Below are positions 3,293 through 54,547 of a stretch of DNA of 64,000 nt, piece by piece; the stretch's first letter is position 1; every line of letters starts with the position of its first letter. The stretch comes from Patescibacteria group bacterium (lineage in GTDB: Bacteria > Patescibacteriota > Minisyncoccia > Phycocordibacterales > JBHPGB01), in NCBI GenBank assembly GCA_042571085.1, contig JBHPGB010000002.1:6796-70795 (forward strand). Direction: 5' to 3'. The notes below the pieces were generated by a model. It had not been told where the DNA came from and made no database searches. It saw only the letters and a program-made list of their open reading frames with translations. Position numbers and translations under genes: made by a program.

Positions 3293-5902
3293 TTATAAAT
3301 GTTTTTTCAAATACTCTCCTGTAATTGATTTTTTGTTATCGGCCACCTGCTCTGGTGTACCCTTCGCAATCAAATTTCCGCCACCCTTTCCTCCCTCAGG
3401 GCCGATGTCTACTATATAATCAGCTGTTTTTACTATATCTAAATTGTGTTCAATTAAAACAACCGTGTTTCCTTTATCTACTAATTTCTGTAAAATTTCA
3501 ATCAATTTTTTCACATCTTCATAATGCAAACCAACAGTTGGCTCATCCAAAAGATAAATAGTTTTTTGCACATGAGGACGATACAATTCTGAAGAAATTT
3601 TTACTCTCTGTGCTTCTCCACCAGAAAGCGTCGTTGCTGATTGTCCCAATTCCAAATACCCAAGCCCTACATCATTCAAACTTTTTAGACGATCGTGAAT
3701 TGCTGGAATATCTTCAAAAAATTCCAGAGCTTCTTCAACTGTCATTTTAAGCACATCGTAAATATTTTTCTTTTTATACTTTACTTCCAAAGTTTCTTTT
3801 TCAAATCTTTTTCCGCCACACACATCACACTTCACATACACAGTCGGCAGAAAATGCATTTCAACAGCTATCTGCCCATTACCTTGGCATGATTCGCAGC
3901 GACCACCCTTCACGTTAAAACTAAAGCGGTTAGCTTTCCAGCCACGAAATCGCGCTTCTTCTGTTGCCGCAAACAAATCTCTAATATGTGTAAACGAACC
4001 AGTATATGTAGCTGGGTTAGATCTTGGTGTGCGTCCAATCGGTGCTTGATCTATAAGAATAGAACGAGAAACATATTCAGAACCAGTAAAGTCTGCGCAA
4101 TTATATATATCATTGCTTCTATATTTTTTATCGAAACGCGCCCGTAAGTTTTTATACAAAATCTCATGCATCAAAGAGCTTTTTCCAGAACCAGATACAC
4201 CGGTAATCACACTCATTTTCCCAAGCGGAAAATCAACATTCATGTTTTTGATGTTAAATATATTTCCTCCGCGAATTTTGATTGAACCTTTGTCTTGATC
4301 GCGGCGTTTATGCGGTACTTCTATTTCAGTATCTCCACGCAAATAATCAAGTGTTAAAGATTTTGATGGGTTTGTTTTTGCTGATAAAAGTTTTTCCAAA
4401 TCATCTGCAACAACAATCTCACCGCCATGTATACCCGCCTTTGGACCGATGTCCACAATATAATCAGAAGCAAAAATAGTATCCTCATCGTGCTCGACAA
4501 CAATGATGGTGTTGCCAAGGTCACGTAGGTTTTGAAGTGTTTTTATGAGACGGTCATTATCACGCTGGTGTAGGCCAATAGTAGGCTCATCAAGCACATA
4601 CAGTGCTCCAACCAAGCGAGAACCAAGCTGTGATGCCAAGCGAATACGCTGTGCTTCTCCACCAGAGAGTGTGTTGGCGCGTCTATCTAATGTAAGATAT
4701 TCAATTCCAACATCAAGCATGAAAAATAACCGAGCTTCAATTTCCCTCATAACAGGCTCGGATATTTCTTTATCTCTAACAGACAATTTCAAACTAGTGA
4801 AAAATTCTGCTGCTTCGCCAATAGACATTGATGTCACTTCTACTATATTTTTACCCCCGATTAAAACATTAAGCGCTTCCGATCTTAATCTCGCACCTTT
4901 ACACGTATCACATACCTCTTTACCAAAGAAATGTTTTGTACCAAGGCCATTACAAGCCTCACAAGCACCATAAGGTGAGTTGAATGAGAAAAGTCTTGGC
5001 TCAACTTCTGGATATGAAAAACCATCCTCCGGACAAGAAAACTTCGATGAAAGTATTATTTCATCATCATCTATGCGCACGCGTACAAGCCCATCAGCTT
5101 CATCAAGAGCGCGCTCTAGAGATTCCTGTAAGCGTTGTTTAGTATCTTTCGCATTCTCTTTAAAATCAAGTAAATCAATTTCATCCACCAAAACGTCGAT
5201 GTCATGCTTCTTTGTTTTGGTGAGCACAATCTGGTCACGTAAAGATTTCATTTTTCCGTCAACTCGCACATTTATATACCCTTTGCCTAGTAAATCATAA
5301 AGAAGTTGGTAATACTCACCCTTTCTCCCACGCACCACCGGTGCAAAAAGCTGTACTGAGCTAGACTTATATTCCACACCCATTACTTTTTTTGTACCAT
5401 TTTTCTTTTGTGTCTTTCCTGCACCTTTCACTTTTTTCAAAACAAAATTCAAAATCTCTTCATTAGAAAGCTTTTCAATTTCCCTACCACACTCCAAACA
5501 ATGCGGCTTTCCAATACGCGCAAAAAGTACACGCATATAATCGTATATTTCTGTAATAGTCGCCACTGTTGAACGTGGGTTGTTTGATCTACTTTTCTGA
5601 TCAATAGAAATCGCTGGAGAAAGCCCGACGATCTCATCAACATCTGGCTTCTGCATTTGACGCAAAAATTGTCGCGCGTATGCAGACAAAGATTCTACAT
5701 AACGACGCTGTCCTTCAGCAAAAATAGTATCAAAAGCAAGAGAAGATTTTCCTGATCCAGATAATCCAGTAAACACAACCATCTTATTGCGAGGCATTTC
5801 TACCGTCACATCTTTGAGATTATGTGTGCGGGCACCTTTTACTATTATTTTGCCAGACTCGAACATGTCTGATTCTTTTTTGTTATTTGTATTCTTTTTC
5901 AT
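3293..5902 (-). CDS. uvrA: excinuclease ABC subunit A (start uncertain: MKKNT at 5902 or MFESG at 5866)
   Basis: Two ABC ATPase modules ([20 protein letters not shown]), zinc-finger CxxC pairs, LSGGEAQR signatures. Confidence 0.9.
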
Positions 5903-23011: not shown

Positions 23012-23166
23012 GGGTTAATTGTATCATACGTCAAAACACACGTCAGTACTGACGTGTGTTTTGTGAAAAATTGATTCACGTCTTGGTGCCCTTTGTAGGA
23101 GCATCCGCGATGCGAATTCGAGCTTTGTGATACAGAAGCTTCGCTTCGTATCACAAACCCTAATTC

Positions 23167-23281
23167 GGCTGCCAGATAGGGACTCGCCTCTCACAAATCA
23201 AAGATTTGTTCCGAAACGCACTATTTTTATAATCGCTTCGCTCTTTAAAAATAGGCGCCTACGGTTCGAGTCCTATATCTG
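23167..23281. repeat. tRNA-associated element copy 1: conserved core of about 76 nt flanked by an inverted and a direct copy of the tRNA-Gln 3' end
   Basis: GGCTGCCAGATAGGGACTCG (reverse complement of the tRNA-Gln T-arm/acceptor 3' strand), then core CCTCTCACAAATCAAAGATTTGTTCCGAAACGCACTATTTTTATA...AAAAATAGGCGCCTAC, then GGTTCGAGTCCTATATCTG. Same core at 40405-40522. Confidence 0.75.
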
Positions 23282-23332
23282 AAAAACACGCAATAAAACA
23301 GACCTCACAAAAGAGGTCTGTTTTATTGCGAG

Positions 23333-23403
23333 CTGCCAGATAGGGACTCGAACCCCAATAGACGGCACCAAAAGCCGTAGTCCTACCATTAGACGATCTG
23401 GCA
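23333..23403 (-). tRNA. tRNA-Gln (anticodon TTG)
   Basis: Manual fold: acceptor TGCCAGA/TCTGGCA, D-stem GTCT/GGAC, anticodon stem ACGGC/GCCGT with loop TTTTGGT, T-arm TGGGG-TTCGAGT-CCCTA. CCA not encoded. Confidence 0.75.
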
Positions 23404-23475: not shown

Positions 23476-23505
23476 CGTAGTCCTACCATTAGACGATCTG
23501 GCAAT
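23476..23505 (-). pseudogene. exact duplicate of the 5' 28 nt of tRNA-Gln (5'-half pseudo-copy) about 70 nt upstream of the tRNA
   Basis: CGTAGTCCTACCATTAGACGATCTGGCAAT is identical to the 5' part of the tRNA gene at 23376-23405. Confidence 0.7.
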
Positions 23506-28021: not shown

Positions 28022-28882
28022 ATGCAAAAGGATATCAAAATTTTAAATAAAAATGAAGTTCCAGAGCAGCTTTTAGAAATTCCGGAGCCACCAGAAAAAT
28101 TATATCTACGTGGTGAATTACCAAGCGCCGATACTAAATTACTATGTGTCATTGGCTCACGCAAATATTCAAACTATGGTAAAGACGTTTGTGAAGAATT
28201 AATTAAAGGACTTGCAGGATACGACATTGCAATTGTTTCTGGGCTCGCAATTGGAATTGATGCAATTGCCCATCATGCAGCAATTAAAGCTGGACTCAAA
28301 ACAATCGCGGTTCCAGGGTCTGGAATTTCAGAAGATGTGCTTTATCCAGCAAGCAACCAACCACTTGCCAGAGAAATACTCTCTCATGGTGGTGCTCTAA
28401 TTTCAGAATTTGAGCCGAACTTCCGTGCAACTGTGTGGAGCTTTCCTAAACGCAACAGAGTAATGGCCGGTTTGTGTGATGCTGTATTAATTATCGAAGC
28501 GGCCGAAAGGTCCGGTACGCTCATTACAGCGCGACTCGCACTTGATTATAATCGCGATGTGCTCGTTGTCCCTAACTCAATATTTTCTGAACACGCAAAG
28601 GGTTCAAACTCTCTTGTGCGCCGTGGCGCAACACCAATCACCTCAAGTGCTGATTTGCTCCAGGAGCTCGGTTTTGACCAGTCTCATAAAAAAGTATCTT
28701 CTATTGAAAAGAATTTATCTGAAAACGAGCAAAAAGTAATTAGTCTACTCAACGAACCACTTGCTCGGGATGATCTAATCCGCCAACTCAAAATAGAAAC
28801 GAGCGAAGCAAATATTTTACTTTCTGCAATGGAAATTAAAGGGCTTATAAAAGAGTCTCTTGGTTTATTGCGTAAAAGTTAA
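28022..28882 (+). CDS. dprA: DNA-processing protein DprA (SMF family)
   Basis: Rossmann-like DprA core: VSGLAIGIDAIAHHAA, GTLITARLALDYNRDVLVVP. Confidence 0.85.
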   Translation: MQKDIKILNKNEVPEQLLEIPEPPEKLYLRGELPSADTKLLCVIGSRKYSNYGKDVCEELIKGLAGYDIAIVSGLAIGIDAIAHHAAIKAGLKTIAVPGSGISEDVLYPASNQPLAREILSHGGALISEFEPNFRATVWSFPKRNRVMAGLCDAVLIIEAAERSGTLITARLALDYNRDVLVVPNSIFSEHAKGSNSLVRRGATPITSSADLLQELGFDQSHKKVSSIEKNLSENEQKVISLLNEPLARDDLIRQLKIETSEANILLSAMEIKGLIKESLGLLRKS

Positions 28883-35835: not shown

Positions 35836-35899
35836 GCCGGAGTGGTGGAATTGGTATACACGCACGACTCAAAATCGTGTTCCGCAAGGATTGAGGGTT
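35836..35899 (+). pseudogene. truncated tRNA-Leu(CAA) copy: the 5' 64 nt are identical to the complete gene 200 nt downstream, then diverge
   Basis: GCCGGAGTGGTGGAATTGGTATACACGCACGACTCAAAATCGTGTTCCGCAAGGATTGAGGGTT followed by GAACTCCGAGC instead of the T-loop/acceptor. Confidence 0.65.
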
Positions 35900-35931
35900 G
35901 AACTCCGAGCTAGACGAGGAGTGAAAAACCT

Positions 35932-35987
35932 TTTGAGGTAGATTAGAGTGAGGTACGAACGAATAATGTACCCAAAAGGTGTACTGA
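35932..35987. repeat. conserved tRNA-cluster motif (family 2), copy at the Leu(CAA) locus
   Basis: TTTGAGGTAGATTAGAGTGAGGTACGAACGAATAATGTACCCAAAAGGT. Related copies at 50976-51032, 51405-51452, partial at 49932-49947. Confidence 0.65.
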
Positions 35988-36033
35988 TCCTGTAAGGATC
36001 AAGTCCGGACTTGAACCCTTTAAAATTAAATAT

Positions 36034-36115
36034 GCCGGAGTGGTGGAATTGGTATACACGCACGACTCAAAATCGTGTTCCGCAAGGATTGAGGGTTCAA
36101 GTCCCTCCTCCGGCA
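36034..36115 (+). tRNA. tRNA-Leu (anticodon CAA), type II with long variable arm
   Basis: Acceptor GCCGGAG/CTCCGGC. Anticodon stem CACGA/TCGTG, loop CTCAAAA. T-arm GGGTTCAAGTCCC. Confidence 0.8.
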
Positions 36116-40337: not shown

Positions 40338-40404
40338 GTTGGGTATTATACAATAGATGCATCACAAACAAAAAAAGAGCTGTCGCTCTTTTTTTTGGTG
40401 AAAT

Positions 40405-40522
40405 GTGCGCCGAGTAGGATTTGCCTCTCACAAATCAAAGATTTGTTCCGAAACGCACTATTTTTATAGTCGTTAAACACTCCTTAAAAATAGGCGCCTA
40501 CGGTTCAAACCCTACTCGGCAT
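40405..40522. repeat. tRNA-associated element copy 2: same conserved core flanked by an inverted and a direct copy of the tRNA-Tyr 3' end
   Basis: GTGCGCCGAGTAGGATTTG (reverse complement of the tRNA-Tyr 3' end), core identical to the 23187-23262 core over its first 46 nt and last 16 nt, then GGTTCAAACCCTACTCGGCAT. Confidence 0.75.
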
Positions 40523-40572
40523 AATAAATATAAAAAACGATAATCTTTTCAGATTACCGTTTTTTATGTTTA

Positions 40573-40658
40573 TGGTGCGCCGAGTAGGATTTGAACCTAC
40601 GTAGGACAAGTCCGGCAGATTTACAGTCTGCTGCGATTGACCACTCCGCCATCGACGC
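40573..40658 (-). tRNA. tRNA-Tyr (anticodon GTA), long variable arm, CCA encoded
   Basis: GCGTCGATGGCGGAGTGGTCAATCGCAGCAGACTGTAAATCTGCCGGACTTGTCCTACGTAGGTTCAAATCCTACTCGGCGCACCA. Confidence 0.8.
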
Positions 40659-49893: not shown

Positions 49894-49921
49894 GGTCTGG
49901 TGGCGAAGTGGTAACGTAGCG
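49894..49921 (+). pseudogene. tRNA-Cys-like 5' fragment (26 of 28 nt identical to the 5' part of tRNA-Cys 120 nt downstream)
   Basis: GGTCTGGTGGCGAAGTGGTAACGTAGCG versus GGCCTGGTGGCGAAGTGGTAACGCAGCG. Followed by a family-2 motif fragment (AAAGGAGTGAAGCGAC) rather than an anticodon arm. Confidence 0.55.
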
Positions 49922-50200: not shown

Positions 50201-50692
50201 ATGCACGGAAAAGAGAAAAAAAGAAGATGGTCAGAAGATGACTTAAAAAATGCTGTGTTGAATTCTACAAGTATTCGACAAGTTCTGGGTAAGCTTAATT
50301 TAAAACAAGCTGGTGGAAATTATGTGCAGGTCAAATATTATATTAAAAAATATAATATTGATATAAAACATTTTACTGGACAAGGCTGGAACAAGGGAAT
50401 GCGCGGCATTGGTAAACCTAGAATTTCTTTAAAAGAAATTCTAACAAAAAATAGTTCTTTTCAAAGTTATAAATTAAAAAAAAGACTTTTTAAAGAAGGT
50501 CTAAAAAAACCACAATGTGAAGAGTGTGGCTGGGCAAAAAAATCTAAAGACGGAAGAATTCCTTTAGAGTTAGATCATGTGAATGGTACCCGAACAGATA
50601 ATCGATTAGAAAATTTACGAGTACTATGCCCAAACTGCCATAGTCTAAAACCTACACATCGTGGATTGAACAAAAAAAAGGGCCAGTGGTGA
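50201..50692 (+). CDS. free-standing HNH endonuclease (homing-endonuclease-like), embedded in the tRNA cluster; the stop overlaps the 5' end of tRNA-Leu(TAA)
   Basis: HNH motif CEECGW...LELDHVNGTRTDNRLENLRVLCPNCH. Basic N-terminal DNA-binding-like region. Confidence 0.7.
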   Translation: MHGKEKKRRWSEDDLKNAVLNSTSIRQVLGKLNLKQAGGNYVQVKYYIKKYNIDIKHFTGQGWNKGMRGIGKPRISLKEILTKNSSFQSYKLKKRLFKEGLKKPQCEECGWAKKSKDGRIPLELDHVNGTRTDNRLENLRVLCPNCHSLKPTHRGLNKKKGQW

Positions 50693-50826: not shown

Positions 50827-50899
50827 CCGCCTGTAGCTCAGTTGGTAGAGCATCCGACTCTTAATCGGCAGGTCGAAGGTTCAAATCCTTCCGGGCGGA
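50827..50899 (+). tRNA. tRNA-Lys (anticodon CTT)
   Basis: CCGCCTGTAGCTCAGTTGGTAGAGCATCCGACTCTTAATCGGCAGGTCGAAGGTTCAAATCCTTCCGGGCGGA. Confidence 0.8.
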
Positions 50900-50975
50900 C
50901 ACGCAGCGTTAGCGTAGTGCACAACCGGAAGCACAGCAATTTTGAAAAAATTGCGTCATGCGGATTTGAAAAGCT

Positions 50976-51032
50976 TTTGAGATAGATTGGAGTGCGGAGC
51001 ACGAACAATATATCCAAAAGGTTGAAGTGTGA
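50976..51032. repeat. conserved tRNA-cluster motif (family 2), copy downstream of tRNA-Lys
   Basis: TTTGAGATAGATTGGAGTGCGGAGCACGAACAATATATCCAAAAGGTTGAAGTGTGA. Covarying triloop hairpin GTGC-GGA-GCAC (GTG-AGG-TAC and TGC-GAA-GCA in other copies). Confidence 0.65.
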
Positions 51033-51134
51033 TTTTTATGAACACTGAAAGACCATTTGAGTTAATTTCGAATCTGAAAGATGAAGAAAATAACCAAATG
51101 GTATACTGCTCATGTAATGAGGGCAGAATCTGTA

Positions 51135-51162
51135 AGATTCAAATCCTTCCGGGCGGACACGC
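51135..51162 (+). repeat. direct repeat of the 3' 28 nt of tRNA-Lys, about 230 nt downstream of the gene
   Basis: GATTCAAATCCTTCCGGGCGGACACGCA versus tRNA GGTTCAAATCCTTCCGGGCGGACACGCA (27 of 28 nt). Confidence 0.7.
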
Positions 51163-51185: not shown

Positions 51186-51267
51186 GCGGGTGTGGTGGAA
51201 TTGGTATACACGCTAGTCTTAGGAACTAGTGCCTCACGGCTTAAGAGTTCGAGTCTCTTCACCCGCA
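51186..51267 (+). tRNA. tRNA-Leu (anticodon TAG), type II
   Basis: Acceptor GCGGGTG/CACCCGC. Anticodon stem CTAGT/ACTAG, loop CTTAGGA. T-arm GAGTTCGAGTCTC. Confidence 0.8.
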
Positions 51268-51404
51268 CAAAACAAAAAAGTGTGATGCGTCAGCATTACA
51301 CTTTTATTGTTTTGTAGTGTGGTGGAGAAACTCGAAAAAAGCTTCCGGTATACAAGAAGCGACTGGAAGGAGCTTCTTGTCGGAAGCGACGGGGTCGCGT
51401 AGCT

Positions 51405-51475
51405 TAGATATTTTGGAGTGCGAAGCATGAACAAAATATCAAGCGAAGGCGACCGAGTCTCTTCACCCGCACAAA
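51405..51475 (+). repeat. family-2 motif copy fused to a 22-nt direct repeat of the tRNA-Leu(TAG) 3' end
   Basis: TAGATATTTTGGAGTGCGAAGCATGAACAAAATATCAAGCGAAGGCGAC followed by CGAGTCTCTTCACCCGCACAAA (identical to the tRNA 3' end plus 3 flanking nt). Confidence 0.7.
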
Positions 51476-51638
51476 TAAAAGACGAAAATGCTATGCATTT
51501 TCGTCTTTTTGCTTGTATTTAAAAAGTGATACTACCTTGACTTTTAACCTATTTTATGCTTAAATATAGCCAGAACAGTTCGGGGCTTTAGGGATTAATT
51601 CCCTCCCCTTTTGACAATTTTTTGACTGGAGAATAATC

Positions 51639-54459: not shown

Positions 54460-54547
54460 TTTTAAATTTCACGACTCGGCTTCGCCTCGCTGCACTGCGT
54501 TTTGTATTCAATCACTGCGTTCTTGAACAAAACGGGAGCATAATAAT

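Follow-up and report, generated by a model that had tools for sequence, protein, structure and literature searches.

The question raised by this locus is why one structured, non-coding core of 76-78 nt lies shortly 3' of two different tRNA genes, tRNA-Gln and tRNA-Tyr, in each case between flanks that match the adjoining tRNA. The window analysed here, that is, the whole stretch of 64 kb, comes from a Patescibacteria group bacterium (GCA_042571085.1, contig JBHPGB010000002.1). An earlier note had proposed an uncharacterised tRNA-targeting small element, and the same reading is reached here: the unit carrying this core, termed core-F, is a member of a large, apparently undescribed family of protein-less tRNA-gene insertions in Patescibacteria. 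As far as literature searches showed, the arrangement has not been described.

Anatomy of the core-F units

To locate the units, both tRNA genes were placed on the minus strand using ARAGORN and Rfam (Table 1), and copies of the core were sought across the whole 64 kb, where it occurs exactly twice. The 35-mer CCTCTCACAAATCAAAGATTTGTTCCGAAACGCAC is found at 23187 and 40424 and AAAAATAGGCGCCTAC at 23247 and 40486, against dinucleotide-shuffle expectations of 0.00 and 0.02, respectively, for 64 kb, confirming that the same core is present at two tRNA loci. On alignment, the two copies share 45-46 identical bases at one end and ~23 at the other, around a variable centre of 15-17 nt. Core-F comprises two hairpins, H1, whose stem is AU-rich and whose loop reads GAG(Y)G...CGA, and ACAAATC-TTT-GATTTGT, together with a 3' tail, GAGAGG. 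Differences between the Tyr and Gln copies are confined to the H1 loop.

In the tRNA sense, the order at both loci is tRNA, terminator (T1), inverted copy (A'), core, direct copy (A) and native trailer. A is a perfect copy of tRNA positions 56-74 (23168-23186 equals 23332-23350 and 40405-40423 equals 40575-40593, 19/19 each), and A' is an imperfect inverted copy of positions 52-70 (Gln, 17/18) or 52-71 (Tyr, 18/19), so that the flanks match the neighbouring tRNA as had been claimed. The sole internal mismatch of the Tyr A' gives a G·U pair on the tRNA-sense strand. Since the tRNA genes lie on the minus strand, the flank previously described as a reverse complement in fact repeats the 3' end of the tRNA gene in direct DNA orientation and without a mismatch, and the supposed degenerate direct copy is the inverted flank. 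The earlier statement that this is not a simple att-site direct repeat was therefore mistaken, as the perfect 19-nt flank is a direct repeat running from T-loop position 56 to position 74. Taken together, positions 52-76 of the tRNA, T1 and A' make up a single long, imperfect palindrome whose centre is the terminator loop.

Both T1 and T2 (the latter at the Tyr locus) possess the G+C hairpin and T-run of an intrinsic terminator. No promoter-like site was found between tRNA and unit at the Gln and Tyr loci, and co-transcription with the tRNA, another earlier suggestion, would be possible only via read-through of a strong terminator. No gene is called between the direct repeats in the window, which hold only ORFs of 51-68 aa without a family match, and the neighbouring genes are housekeeping genes: dnaX, clpB and the uracil-DNA glycosylase gene.

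Table 1. Positions of the parts of the two core-F units and of related elements in the window.
Feature	Coordinates	Strand	Evidence and remarks
tRNA-Gln(UUG), intact	23332..23403	-	ARAGORN; Rfam tRNA 55.9 bits; positions 56-74 are the first direct-repeat copy
T1 (Gln), terminator hairpin directly 3' of tRNA-Gln	23289..23330	-	Terminator scan; 18 pairs then TGTTTTT
A' (Gln), inverted copy of positions 52-70, CAGATATAGGACTCGAACC on tRNA-sense strand	23263..23281	-	17/18 match; pairs with A in predicted fold
Core-F (Gln), 76 nt	23187..23262	-	Sequence matches, consensus fold, covariance model 127 bits
A (Gln), perfect 19-nt direct copy of positions 56-74	23168..23186	-	BLAST 19/19; exact 16-mer match; read as displaced native tRNA 3' end
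tRNA-Tyr(GUA), intact, CCA encoded	40573..40658	-	ARAGORN, Rfam; identical to tRNA-Tyr in L129
T1 (Tyr), terminator directly 3' of tRNA-Tyr	40530..40567	-	Terminator scan; flipped relative to L129
A' (Tyr), inverted copy of positions 52-71, TGCCGAGTAGGGTTTGAACC	40502..40521	-	18/19 match; identical to L129 A'
Core-F (Tyr), 78 nt, second copy	40424..40501	-	Sequence matches; covariance model 124.5 bits
A (Tyr), perfect 19-nt direct copy of positions 56-74	40405..40423	-	BLAST/exact match; followed by native-like trailer ATTTCA...
T2 (Tyr), second terminator 10 nt past A	40370..40395	-	Terminator scan; read as original tRNA-Tyr terminator
Element after tRNA-Lys: split A', long type-1 core, perfect 21-nt tRNA-Lys 3'-end copy (51138-51158)	50901..51158	+	
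Element after tRNA-Leu(UAG): T1, A' (51316-51335), type-2 core ending GGCGAC, perfect 19-nt 3'-end copy (51454-51472)	51269..51472	+	
Upstream variant, tRNA-Leu(CAA)	35836..36018	+	Copy of tRNA nucleotides 1-64, type-1 core, positions 56-62, inverted 51-62

Related elements and orthologous loci in Patescibacteria

To determine how widespread the arrangement is, the window and 129 loci, each no longer than 8 kb and drawn from over 100 Patescibacteria genomes, were surveyed for perfect tRNA 3'-end copies of at least 15 nt. Such a copy is present 34-262 nt downstream of 45 tRNAs of 17 isotypes, about 30% of the tRNAs sampled, and no repeat lies further than 262 nt from its tRNA in the 8-kb loci. 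The repeat ends 0-3 nt from the tRNA end in 36 of 44 cases and its start is set by the core type, T54 for type-1 cores and C56 for the GTGAC type and core-F, with two cases starting in the anticodon loop (position 37). The core motifs CCAAAAGGTGTAC...CTGTAAG are exactly conserved across classes of Patescibacteria, and type-1 cores sit at the dyad centre (...TYGAA-core-TTCRA...). The same cores are also found away from tRNAs, inside unrelated local inverted repeats beside terminators. The window itself contains further elements of the same layout but with other cores after tRNA-Lys and tRNA-Leu(UAG), and a variant upstream of tRNA-Leu(CAA), where the partial copy of nucleotides 1-64 ends at T-loop position 55 and the intact tRNA is located at 36034.

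A metagenome scan for core-F gave five matches, one of which (L007) is a chance match within a coding region, and core-F adjoins two or three further tRNA 3' ends in the remaining contigs (L005, L006, L008 and L009), with the junction at C56 every time. An invariant core with flanks that track the local tRNA, as had been proposed, is therefore a feature of the Gln and Tyr loci and of two or three metagenome tRNA ends; no copies of this core with flanks unrelated to a tRNA occurred, and the copies do not belong to a longer segmental duplication. The arms differ by locus while the core is identical. The earlier view that the unit is not an IS element with element-encoded terminal repeats is likewise supported. 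A core-F 19-mer had no match in a scan of GTDB genomes, and across 776 kb of related loci a core-F covariance model recovered only the two window copies. Weak matches of the model at 54466 and 63500 of the window lie inside coding sequence and were dismissed. Neither core-F (two patterns) nor type-1 cores matched any of 2.9 million viral contigs.

Orthologous loci were compared to determine whether the sites vary in occupancy. At tRNA-Tyr, the insertion is present in the window and in the related locus L129, but the orthologous locus in L130, a more distant relative, contains only one tRNA-Tyr 3' end and neither A' nor T1, and constitutes an empty site whose native trailer resembles the sequence past the second A in the window. 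The window and L129 have T1, A' and A in common at this locus, with core-F in the former and a type-2 core in the latter, and the core junctions are identical, the left one ending ...GAACC and the right one beginning CAAATCC. T1 and A' are ~99% conserved between the two, compared with roughly 85% for the upstream spacer, and the window T1 is flipped, matching that of L129 at 47/51 positions as its reverse complement and at 44/51 in direct orientation. A core-F element in L009, located at another tRNA, has a T1 homologous to the Gln T1 (38/51 identical, shuffle maximum 34). Because the L130 empty site lacks T1 and a homologous T1 occurs at a different tRNA, T1 is likely to arrive with the insertion.

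At tRNA-Gln, four relatives all carry elements, with different cores. In L001 two units stand in tandem, identical at 163/163 positions, and in L002 the distal A has decayed. Elements in L132, the only same-strain contig recovered, via homologues of a 382-aa protein, are identical to those of the window and therefore uninformative on polymorphism. Neither an excised form nor a presence/absence polymorphism within the population was seen. Exact-protein look-ups with the window DnaX, the uracil-DNA glycosylase and their 100%-identical cluster representative gave no match.

Fold, covariation and candidate enzymes

The predicted fold of the unit is a long stem topped by a branched loop that the core forms (z-scores -4.1 to -7.0), in agreement with the stem-and-loop structure proposed earlier. 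Predicted stability is greater for the tRNA-sense (minus) strand, at -44.1 and -52.9 kcal/mol, than for the opposite strand, at -35.7 and -38.5 kcal/mol. In the core-F consensus fold, H1 is supported by four compensatory pairs and one G·U to A-U change. Across the type-1 core, 88.8% of cells are paired compared with 73.8% in shuffles, and 156 double-change cells are observed compared with 51, levels reached in 0/500 shuffles in both cases. On the tRNA-sense strand, G·U pairs are more frequent than A·C pairs (17:5 and 19:2). In the A'/A helices, counted in the 14 ungapped cases only, the ratio is an indecisive 17 to 11.

To identify any known RNA family, the whole window was searched with Rfam at gathering thresholds, and four sub-regions and L004 were searched in E-value mode; tRNAs alone reach threshold in both. 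The non-tRNA matches to the unit are weak microRNA-family matches on the A-T1-A' hairpin (28.1 bits against a gathering threshold of 85), and YrlA scores 15 against 69 bits. No hammerhead, twister, HDV, hatchet or pistol ribozyme motif was found by eye or in Rfam.

The search was extended to enzymes that could mobilise the units. None of the 28 window ORFs scanned encodes an integrase, transposase or reverse transcriptase, and an all-against-all BLAST of the ORFs flanking 57 type-1 copies in other genomes revealed no recurrent protein family. Likewise, no autonomous element with the same cores was found in the 129 loci of up to 8 kb or in the viral contigs. An HNH endonuclease encoded at 50201-50692 was considered, but its homologue is present in only two of about 130 loci and is syntenic there, indicating no general link to the elements.

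A proposed integrative mini-cassette and its rivals

These observations are best read, tentatively and with slightly less than even confidence, as an att-like integrative mini-cassette that lacks an integrase and whose structured core can be exchanged. Such a protein-less, non-autonomous cassette would lodge at the 3' end of a tRNA gene and bring, in the tRNA direction, a replacement A (positions 56-74/76), its own T1, the antisense arm A' and the structured core. The replacement A would now complete the functional tRNA, and the original 3' end, displaced downstream ahead of the native trailer and terminator, would be the perfect 19-nt direct repeat, in the manner of attL and attR. The moving unit is likely to be A-T1-A'-core, with A as the identity block and recombination between cassette and tRNA gene falling within it. 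A must remain perfect because it is part of an essential tRNA, and A' would stay complementary to A because both are arms of one hairpin, through pairing selection and/or quasi-palindrome correction. The core would be a separate module that folds single-stranded in the tRNA sense, is exchangeable among tRNA-specific scaffolds, and is probably the cis-acting part recognised by a mobilising factor supplied in trans, while the A/A' hairpin may be a folded single-stranded att site on the incoming DNA. The upstream variant at tRNA-Leu(CAA), with its 5' partial copy and inverted 12-mer, is not cleanly derivable from the cassette model, and the exact conservation of core motifs across the phylum is also compatible with a role in the host. 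Also counted against the cassette reading were the poor suitability of 150-250-bp circles for protein-mediated recombination and the failure to find, in the loci and contigs searched, a mobilising enzyme, an autonomous partner element, an excised form or a presence/absence polymorphism.

Tyrosine integrases use sublocations within tRNA genes that include the T-loop and the anticodon loop (Williams 2002, cited in PMC9897764), and the attL and attR of their elements resemble the present arrangement in combining one intact tRNA with a displaced partial copy (Williams 2002; Reiter 1989; PMC9897764). The repeats reported here likewise start in the T-loop or anticodon loop, finish at the 3' end and leave the tRNA intact; in both systems an identity block runs from one of these loops to the tRNA 3' end, the element supplies a new 3' end, and tandem arrays occur. 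However, the insert is only ~95-260 bp, with no integrase or other protein encoded, and repeats 34-262 nt apart leave no room for a kilobase-scale integrase-bearing element. The unit also differs in that it brings a terminator of its own, repeats the tRNA segment a second time in inverted orientation, has a core showing RNA-like covariation, and combines one and the same core with the identity blocks of different tRNAs. The classical integrase model alone explains neither a 100%-identical core in different-tRNA scaffolds nor the RNA-like covariation with G·U bias in the arm region.

Other known mobile units share some of these features. CIMEs are att-flanked elements without recombination genes that are mobilised by a related integrative element (PMC5704250), and resemble the cassettes in their non-autonomy, att-like bounding repeats at a tRNA gene and tandem accretion. 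They are, however, kilobase-scale deletion derivatives of a recognisable ICE, whereas the units here are 10-100 times smaller and structured, and no parent was found in the loci searched. MITE-like repeats of bacteria (REPIN/REP, Correia, BOX, RUP) are also short, multi-copy, hairpin-forming, intergenic and non-coding, and are often near terminators, but their terminal inverted repeats are element-encoded and the same in every copy, with target duplications of 0-10 bp. In the present units the inverted arms come from the tRNA and are specific to the locus, and a direct repeat of 17-22 nt has the tRNA end as its boundary. Core-F does not fall among the MITEs, as the Gln, Tyr, L009 and L005 copies have one identical core between wholly different arms, and the tRNA-bounded repeat is 19 nt. 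Integron attC sites and the CTX-phi attP(+) hairpin, acted on by IntI or host XerCD, are similar in being long, imperfect, bulged hairpins that are possibly recognised by structure and in allowing cassette-like exchange and arrays; a host-encoded recombinase of this kind would permit tiny protein-less elements. Unlike attC, the units lack GTTRRRY/RYYYAAC boxes and have T-loop sequences of opposite polarity adjoining the core, and their target is a tRNA gene rather than attI or dif. Assignment to integron attC was rejected, since a hairpin is present but the conserved sequences are T-loop halves (TYGAACC-core-CRA). TIGR and IS110-type dual guides consist of two short guides that read adjacent stretches on opposite DNA strands between box C/D-like flanks (PMC12045711). 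By comparison with that description, a dual guide was also rejected, as A' (52-70) and A (56-74) correspond to a single stretch and form a helix together.

The foremost alternative to the cassette, although an unlikely one, is a host-encoded functional RNA module tied to tRNA genes. Transcription continuing beyond T1 would produce an A'-core-A RNA whose closing helix holds the tRNA T-arm/acceptor 3' strand, and which could undergo processing, receive a CCA tail or be bound as a tRNA minihelix is; its core, an S-turn-like hairpin and a hairpin with a 7-nt loop, would bind a factor conserved in Patescibacteria, and A would be kept perfect by selection for mimicry of the cognate tRNA. The phylum-wide core motifs, the strong covariation, and the G·U excess and stabler folds of the tRNA-sense strand all suit such an RNA, as do the higher conservation of T1 and A' than of the spacer between the window and L129 and the persistence of a perfect A even beside a diverged trailer, for example at tRNA-Lys. 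Against a host function stand the presence of a copy at only about 30% of tRNAs, orthologous loci that vary in core family, copy number and presence or absence, and the occurrence of identical tandem units and decayed copies. A strong terminator without a promoter-like site separates tRNA and unit, the same cores also occur away from tRNAs, and the A'/A helix lacks the top 2-3 acceptor base pairs, and so is not a faithful minihelix.

Replication template switching at hairpins is a rather improbable explanation, in which A, T1, A' and A would arise without integration machinery or att function, by a tandem inversion duplication or quasi-palindrome extension at the terminator/T-arm, and the core would be a repeat that seeks hairpin loops. 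Tandem inversion duplications and quasi-palindrome switching, known from Salmonella and E. coli genetics, produce a direct-inverted-direct order, hairpin junctions and a flipped hairpin tip. All three likenesses are seen here: the palindrome centred on the terminator loop and the flipped T1 of the window relative to L129 are as expected, as are the dyad-centred type-1 cores and the long locus-specific inverted repeats beside terminators in copies away from tRNAs. Tandem inversion duplications, however, bring no conserved foreign core and terminator and ignore tRNA boundaries, whereas T1 is not native at these sites, most repeats stop exactly where the tRNA does, and every core family has its own fixed junction position.

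The units are very unlikely to be scars of larger integrase-bearing prophages or islands that inserted at the T-loop and lost their interior, with juxtaposed attL/attR arms forming the apparent core. Although att-like direct repeats at classical sublocations (PMC9897764) would be expected of such scars, independent deletions would not yield one core of 76-78 nt, identically bounded, at the Gln, Tyr and other tRNA genes, compensatory hairpin changes are not required of integrase arm sites, and neither distant repeats in the 8-kb loci nor copies in the viral contigs were detected. The primer-binding site for tRNA-primed reverse transcription raised in the earlier note, or flanks templated on tRNA molecules, is the least probable explanation by far: complementarity of A' to the tRNA over 18-19 nt beside a conserved element recalls the primer-binding site of LTR retroelements, but that site pairs with the 3'-terminal 18 nt including CCA in an element encoding reverse transcriptase, whereas A' stops 4-6 nt before the 3' end without an NCCA complement and no reverse transcriptase is encoded among the ORFs examined. 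Genes without an encoded CCA also have none after A, and trailer or terminator sequence is part of some copies; both facts point to DNA or a precursor as the source rather than mature tRNA.

A broader version of the mini-cassette reading, in which confidence is low, is that Patescibacteria carry phylum-wide protein-less mobile cassettes that insert at the tRNA T-loop, with sense and antisense arms re-created for each new tRNA by target-templated synthesis or hairpin correction, and with a conserved host enzyme that integrates them under the guidance of a single-stranded hairpin, folded so as to resemble the target duplex. If true, this would be a new mode of self-retargeting, site-specific DNA integration. 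If the mini-cassette reading itself is right, around a third of the sampled tRNA genes hold tiny gene-preserving insertions that are invisible to annotation pipelines, and the resulting tRNA fragments and pseudo-tRNAs can mislead tRNA calling and island finders. Integration at tRNA genes would then be feasible for units of 100-250 bp without a recombinase gene, pointing to a trans-acting enzyme, possibly host-encoded, and to an att site based on a hairpin or structure. Compact DNA insertion beside a chosen tRNA gene, with the gene kept intact, would be of mechanistic and practical interest. The cores would represent a covariation-supported RNA-like fold with no Rfam match in more than 100 species-level genomes, and would offer RNA-seq and biochemical work on cultivable Saccharibacteria and other Patescibacteria a concrete object of study.

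Core-F and its flanks at tRNA-Gln and tRNA-Tyr

An earlier note had described a core shared downstream of tRNA-Gln and tRNA-Tyr and flanked by copies of each tRNA's 3' end, and its coordinates and description of core and flanks were correct. The window has two copies of this core, termed core-F, and no more: the 35-mer CCTCTCACAAATCAAAGATTTGTTCCGAAACGCAC is found at 23187 and 40424 (shuffle expectation 0.00) and the 16-mer AAAAATAGGCGCCTAC at 23247 and 40486 (expectation 0.02). Aligned with each other, the two copies are identical over 45-46 bases at one end and about 23 at the other, around a centre of 15-17 nt that varies. At both loci, the order along the tRNA direction is tRNA, an intrinsic terminator (T1), an inverted copy of the tRNA 3' end (A'), core-F and a direct copy of that end (A), and the core/A junction falls between T-loop positions 55 and 56. 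The stretch made up of tRNA positions 52-76, T1 and A' is a single long, imperfect palindrome with the T1 loop at its centre, and no promoter-like site was detected on either strand between T1 and the unit at either locus. Directly after the Gln A, a hairpin at 23125-23158 (-), TTTGTGATAC-GAAGCGAAGCTTCT-GTATCACAAA, has a loop resembling the loop motif of the cores; it may be what is left of an older element, or else the native terminator. The same architecture, with other cores, follows tRNA-Lys and tRNA-Leu(UAG); the tRNA-Lys copy extends into 5 nt of trailer, and its tRNA part is perfect while the copied trailer hairpin has diverged.

Cassette features in the window, with positions listed in the tRNA direction for the terminators
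Feature	Position	Strand	Details
tRNA-Gln(UUG)	23332-23403	minus	ARAGORN and Rfam
T1, Gln	23330-23289	minus	intrinsic terminator; terminator scan
A', Gln	23263-23281	minus	inverted copy of tRNA positions 52-70; imperfect, 17/18 match
core-F, Gln	23187-23262	minus	76 nt
A, Gln	23168-23186	minus	perfect 19-nt copy of positions 56-74; CGAGTCCCTATCTGGCAGC
Hairpins after A, Gln		minus	tRNA-Gln locus
tRNA-Tyr(GUA)	40573-40658	minus	ARAGORN and Rfam
T1, Tyr	40567-40530	minus	intrinsic terminator; terminator scan
A', Tyr	40502-40521	minus	inverted copy of tRNA positions 52-71; imperfect, 18/19 match
core-F, Tyr	40424-40501	minus	78 nt
A, Tyr	40405-40423	minus	perfect 19-nt copy of positions 56-74; CAAATCCTACTCGGCGCAC
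T2, Tyr	40395-40370	minus	second terminator, after A
Upstream variant, tRNA-Leu(CAA)	35836-36018	plus	copy of nucleotides 1-64 (to T-loop position 55) fused to type-1 core
Element after tRNA-Lys (50827-50900)	50901-51158	plus	split inverted arm, long type-1 core, perfect 21-nt 3'-end copy (51138-51158)
Element after tRNA-Leu(UAG) (51186-51268)	51269-51510	plus	T1, A', type-2 core ending GGCGAC, perfect 19-nt copy (51454-51472), second terminator

The genes flanking the core-F loci (dnaX, dus, clpB and the uracil-DNA glycosylase gene) are housekeeping genes. The window also encodes DprA (DNA processing protein A; 28022-28882, +), consistent with single-stranded DNA uptake by natural transformation in the host. 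An HNH_3 endonuclease ORF at 50201-50692 (+) lies between tRNA-Cys and tRNA-Leu(UAA), overlapping the start of the latter, and a homologue with 67% identity occupies the syntenic position in locus L090; no homologue was found near elements elsewhere, so this endonuclease was rejected as a general partner of the elements.

Distribution and folding of the cores

A metagenome scan with a core-derived 19-mer recovered four real core-F copies, in contigs L005, L006, L008 and L009. In L009, core-F has a degenerate inverted arm on one side and, on the other, 19 nt (CGAATCCTACTCGCGGAGC) identical to the 3' end of an adjoining tRNA that is different from the tRNA-Gln and tRNA-Tyr of the window, and two further tRNA-like 3' ends adjoin the copies in L005 and L008. 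The junction in the metagenome copies is always C56, and the 3' 45 nt of core-F are invariant in 6/6 copies. The proposal that the core is constant while its flanks track the local tRNA is thus upheld by the Gln, Tyr and L009 loci and the tRNA-like ends in L005 and L008, and the core-F copies checked at further tRNA ends revealed neither flanks unrelated to the nearby tRNA nor recurrence solely within longer duplicated segments. The core/flank finding is real and reaches well past the two reported loci.

All cores have in common a helix P1, an AU-rich hairpin with a GAG(Y)G...CGAA loop and a small second hairpin just before A. The type-1 motif, CCAAAAGGTGTAC-N2-8-CTGTAAG, is present in at least 119 stretches in a GTDB scan, and the matches listed are from Patescibacteria in all but one case, a chance match, with Paceibacteria, Nomura-, Kaiser-, Taylor-, Lloyd-, Zambryskii-, Adler- and Vogelbacteria and MAGs labelled Saccharibacteria among them. 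Two type-1 cores, in L039 (reverse strand, about 1600-1770) and L032 (about 4430-4610), have no adjoining tRNA and lie inside long (17-20 bp) locus-specific inverted repeats, beside which L039 has a terminator. Unrelated hairpins may thus be another kind of site at whose tips the core can lodge.

In the predicted fold, A' can pair alternatively with the downstream A to leave core-F as a branched loop, with energies of -44.1 and -52.9 kcal/mol on the tRNA-sense strand versus -35.7 and -38.5 kcal/mol on the opposite strand and z-scores down to -7.0. Pairing in core-F hairpin H1 is kept across the six copies through three U-A to A-U changes, one A-U to C-G and one G·U to A-U. An alignment of 47 type-1 cores contains 88.8% paired cells versus 73.8% in shuffles and 156 double-change cells versus 51, neither value being attained in any of 500 shuffles, and slid controls were far lower. 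In a set of 107 distinct copies, G·U is commoner than A·C (17:5 in P2 and 19:2 in P3), indicating that the tRNA-sense strand is the folding strand, as RNA or single-stranded DNA. This covariation and the phylum-wide conservation of the motif speak for the cassette as a host RNA module, a reading weakened by its patchy occurrence, its rapid turnover and the position of a terminator upstream of the unit. The elements have no match in Rfam, the viral contig collection contains none of the cores, and no description of this arrangement was found in the literature; of the catalogued RNA and mobile-element families that could be tested, none fits the cassette.

Orthologous loci and exchange of modules

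The tRNA-Tyr locus lies between clpB and the uracil-DNA glycosylase gene. A relative, L129 (GCA_042568055.1; glycosylase 85% identical), is like the window in its tRNA, T1, A' (including the single mismatch) and A, but has a type-2 core in place of core-F, with identical junctions (...GAACC| and |CAAATCC). The T1 hairpin between tRNA-Tyr and A' has opposite orientations in the two genomes, with both arms unchanged (window 40530-40567 against L129 2008-2058, 47/51 as reverse complement versus 44/51 direct), which indicates a flip between inverted repeats or template switching, and implies that the A and A' arms interact. In the more distant L130 (GCA_054015055.1; glycosylase 75% identical), the site is empty, with one tRNA 3' end and no A', and the native trailer resembles the window sequence after the second tRNA-Tyr A.

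At the tRNA-Gln locus, beside dnaX, all four relatives carry elements and the cores differ. Downstream of tRNA-Gln in L001 (12881-13206) are two tandem units with 163/163 identity (trailer, interrupted A', core and A), in which an additional hairpin interrupts the inverted arm, and upstream partial copies are also present; another relative has a decayed distal A and a duplicated terminator. The window Gln T1 shares 38/51 positions with T1 of the L009 element at another tRNA (shuffle maximum 34), with compensatory changes, and on this sequence evidence the two are homologous. Together, these comparisons indicate that T1 comes in with the insertion, that the scaffold A-T1-A'...A can outlast its own core, and that cores are exchangeable modules. 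If the cassette were a by-product of template switching, the palindrome and the T1 flip would be accounted for, but the imported T1 and the tRNA-bounded repeat would be left unexplained. Two observations contradict the idea that the cassettes are scars of larger elements: their boundaries are identical from one tRNA to another, and no long version was found.

Copies of tRNA 3' ends and an integrative reading

Of the 141 tRNAs in the listed type-1 loci and the window that are followed by 400 nt or more of sequence, 43 have an exact repeat of 15 nt or more of their own 3' end 34-262 nt downstream. This proportion (30%) is biased upward because loci were picked for carrying a type-1 core, and no copy in this survey lay farther than 262 nt from its tRNA. 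In a slightly wider set, copies accompany 45 tRNAs of 17 isotypes; in the window alone, they accompany 4/7. The copy ends 0-3 nt from the tRNA end in 36/44 cases, lacks CCA where the gene lacks CCA and sometimes includes trailer, so the source of the copies is DNA rather than mature tRNA. This origin and the positions covered by A' contradict the earlier suggestion that the arm complementary to the tRNA is a primer-binding site. The start of the copy depends on core family: T54 for 11/22 type-1 cores, C56 for 7/8 cores ending in GTGAC and for core-F, and the anticodon loop in two cases. An inverted-orientation element in L092 (about 620-690) and L063 has a 38-nt direct repeat from tRNA-Ile position 37, in the anticodon loop.

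Elements integrated into tRNA genes, in the account given in PMC9897764 (citing Williams 2002 and Reiter 1989), have a signature repeat from the T-loop or anticodon loop to the tRNA 3' end, leave one tRNA intact and form tandems, and the cassette is alike in all of these respects. The most economical reading is that the inserted unit is A-T1-A'-core, which would provide a replacement tRNA 3' end and terminator and displace the native 3' end downstream. A would stay perfect because it serves as the identity block for recombination and also belongs to an essential tRNA. A', as the other arm of the same hairpin, would track A by selection or by quasi-palindrome correction. Like CTX-phi attP(+) and integron attC, the A/A' hairpin may allow single-stranded DNA to mimic the duplex of the target.

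The integrative-unit model does not cleanly explain the upstream variant at tRNA-Leu(CAA), where the core is followed by positions 56-62, inverted 51-62 and the intact tRNA at 36034, an arrangement that recurs upstream of tRNA-Gln in L001 (12330-12808). Decayed 5' partial copies, each followed by an insert, also lie upstream of intact tRNA-Gln (nucleotides 1-28; 23476-23503, -) and tRNA-Cys (nucleotides 4-28; 49897-49921, +; insert containing a GGAGTGAAGCG motif), with an equivalent in L002 (10600-10628), suggesting a second insertion position near the D-arm/anticodon-stem boundary. The integrative reading is weakest in its putative mobilising factor. The 28 window ORFs scanned include no integrase, transposase or reverse transcriptase, and no protein family recurs beside the 57 type-1 copies examined.

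Unlike every described integrative element, the cassette measures 95-260 bp and encodes no protein, and it differs further in having an antisense copy of the identity block, a structured core, and one core combined with the identity blocks of different tRNAs. The cassette is classified as a newly seen variant of tRNA-targeted integrative elements, with a substantial, though less than even, chance that the mechanism itself is new.
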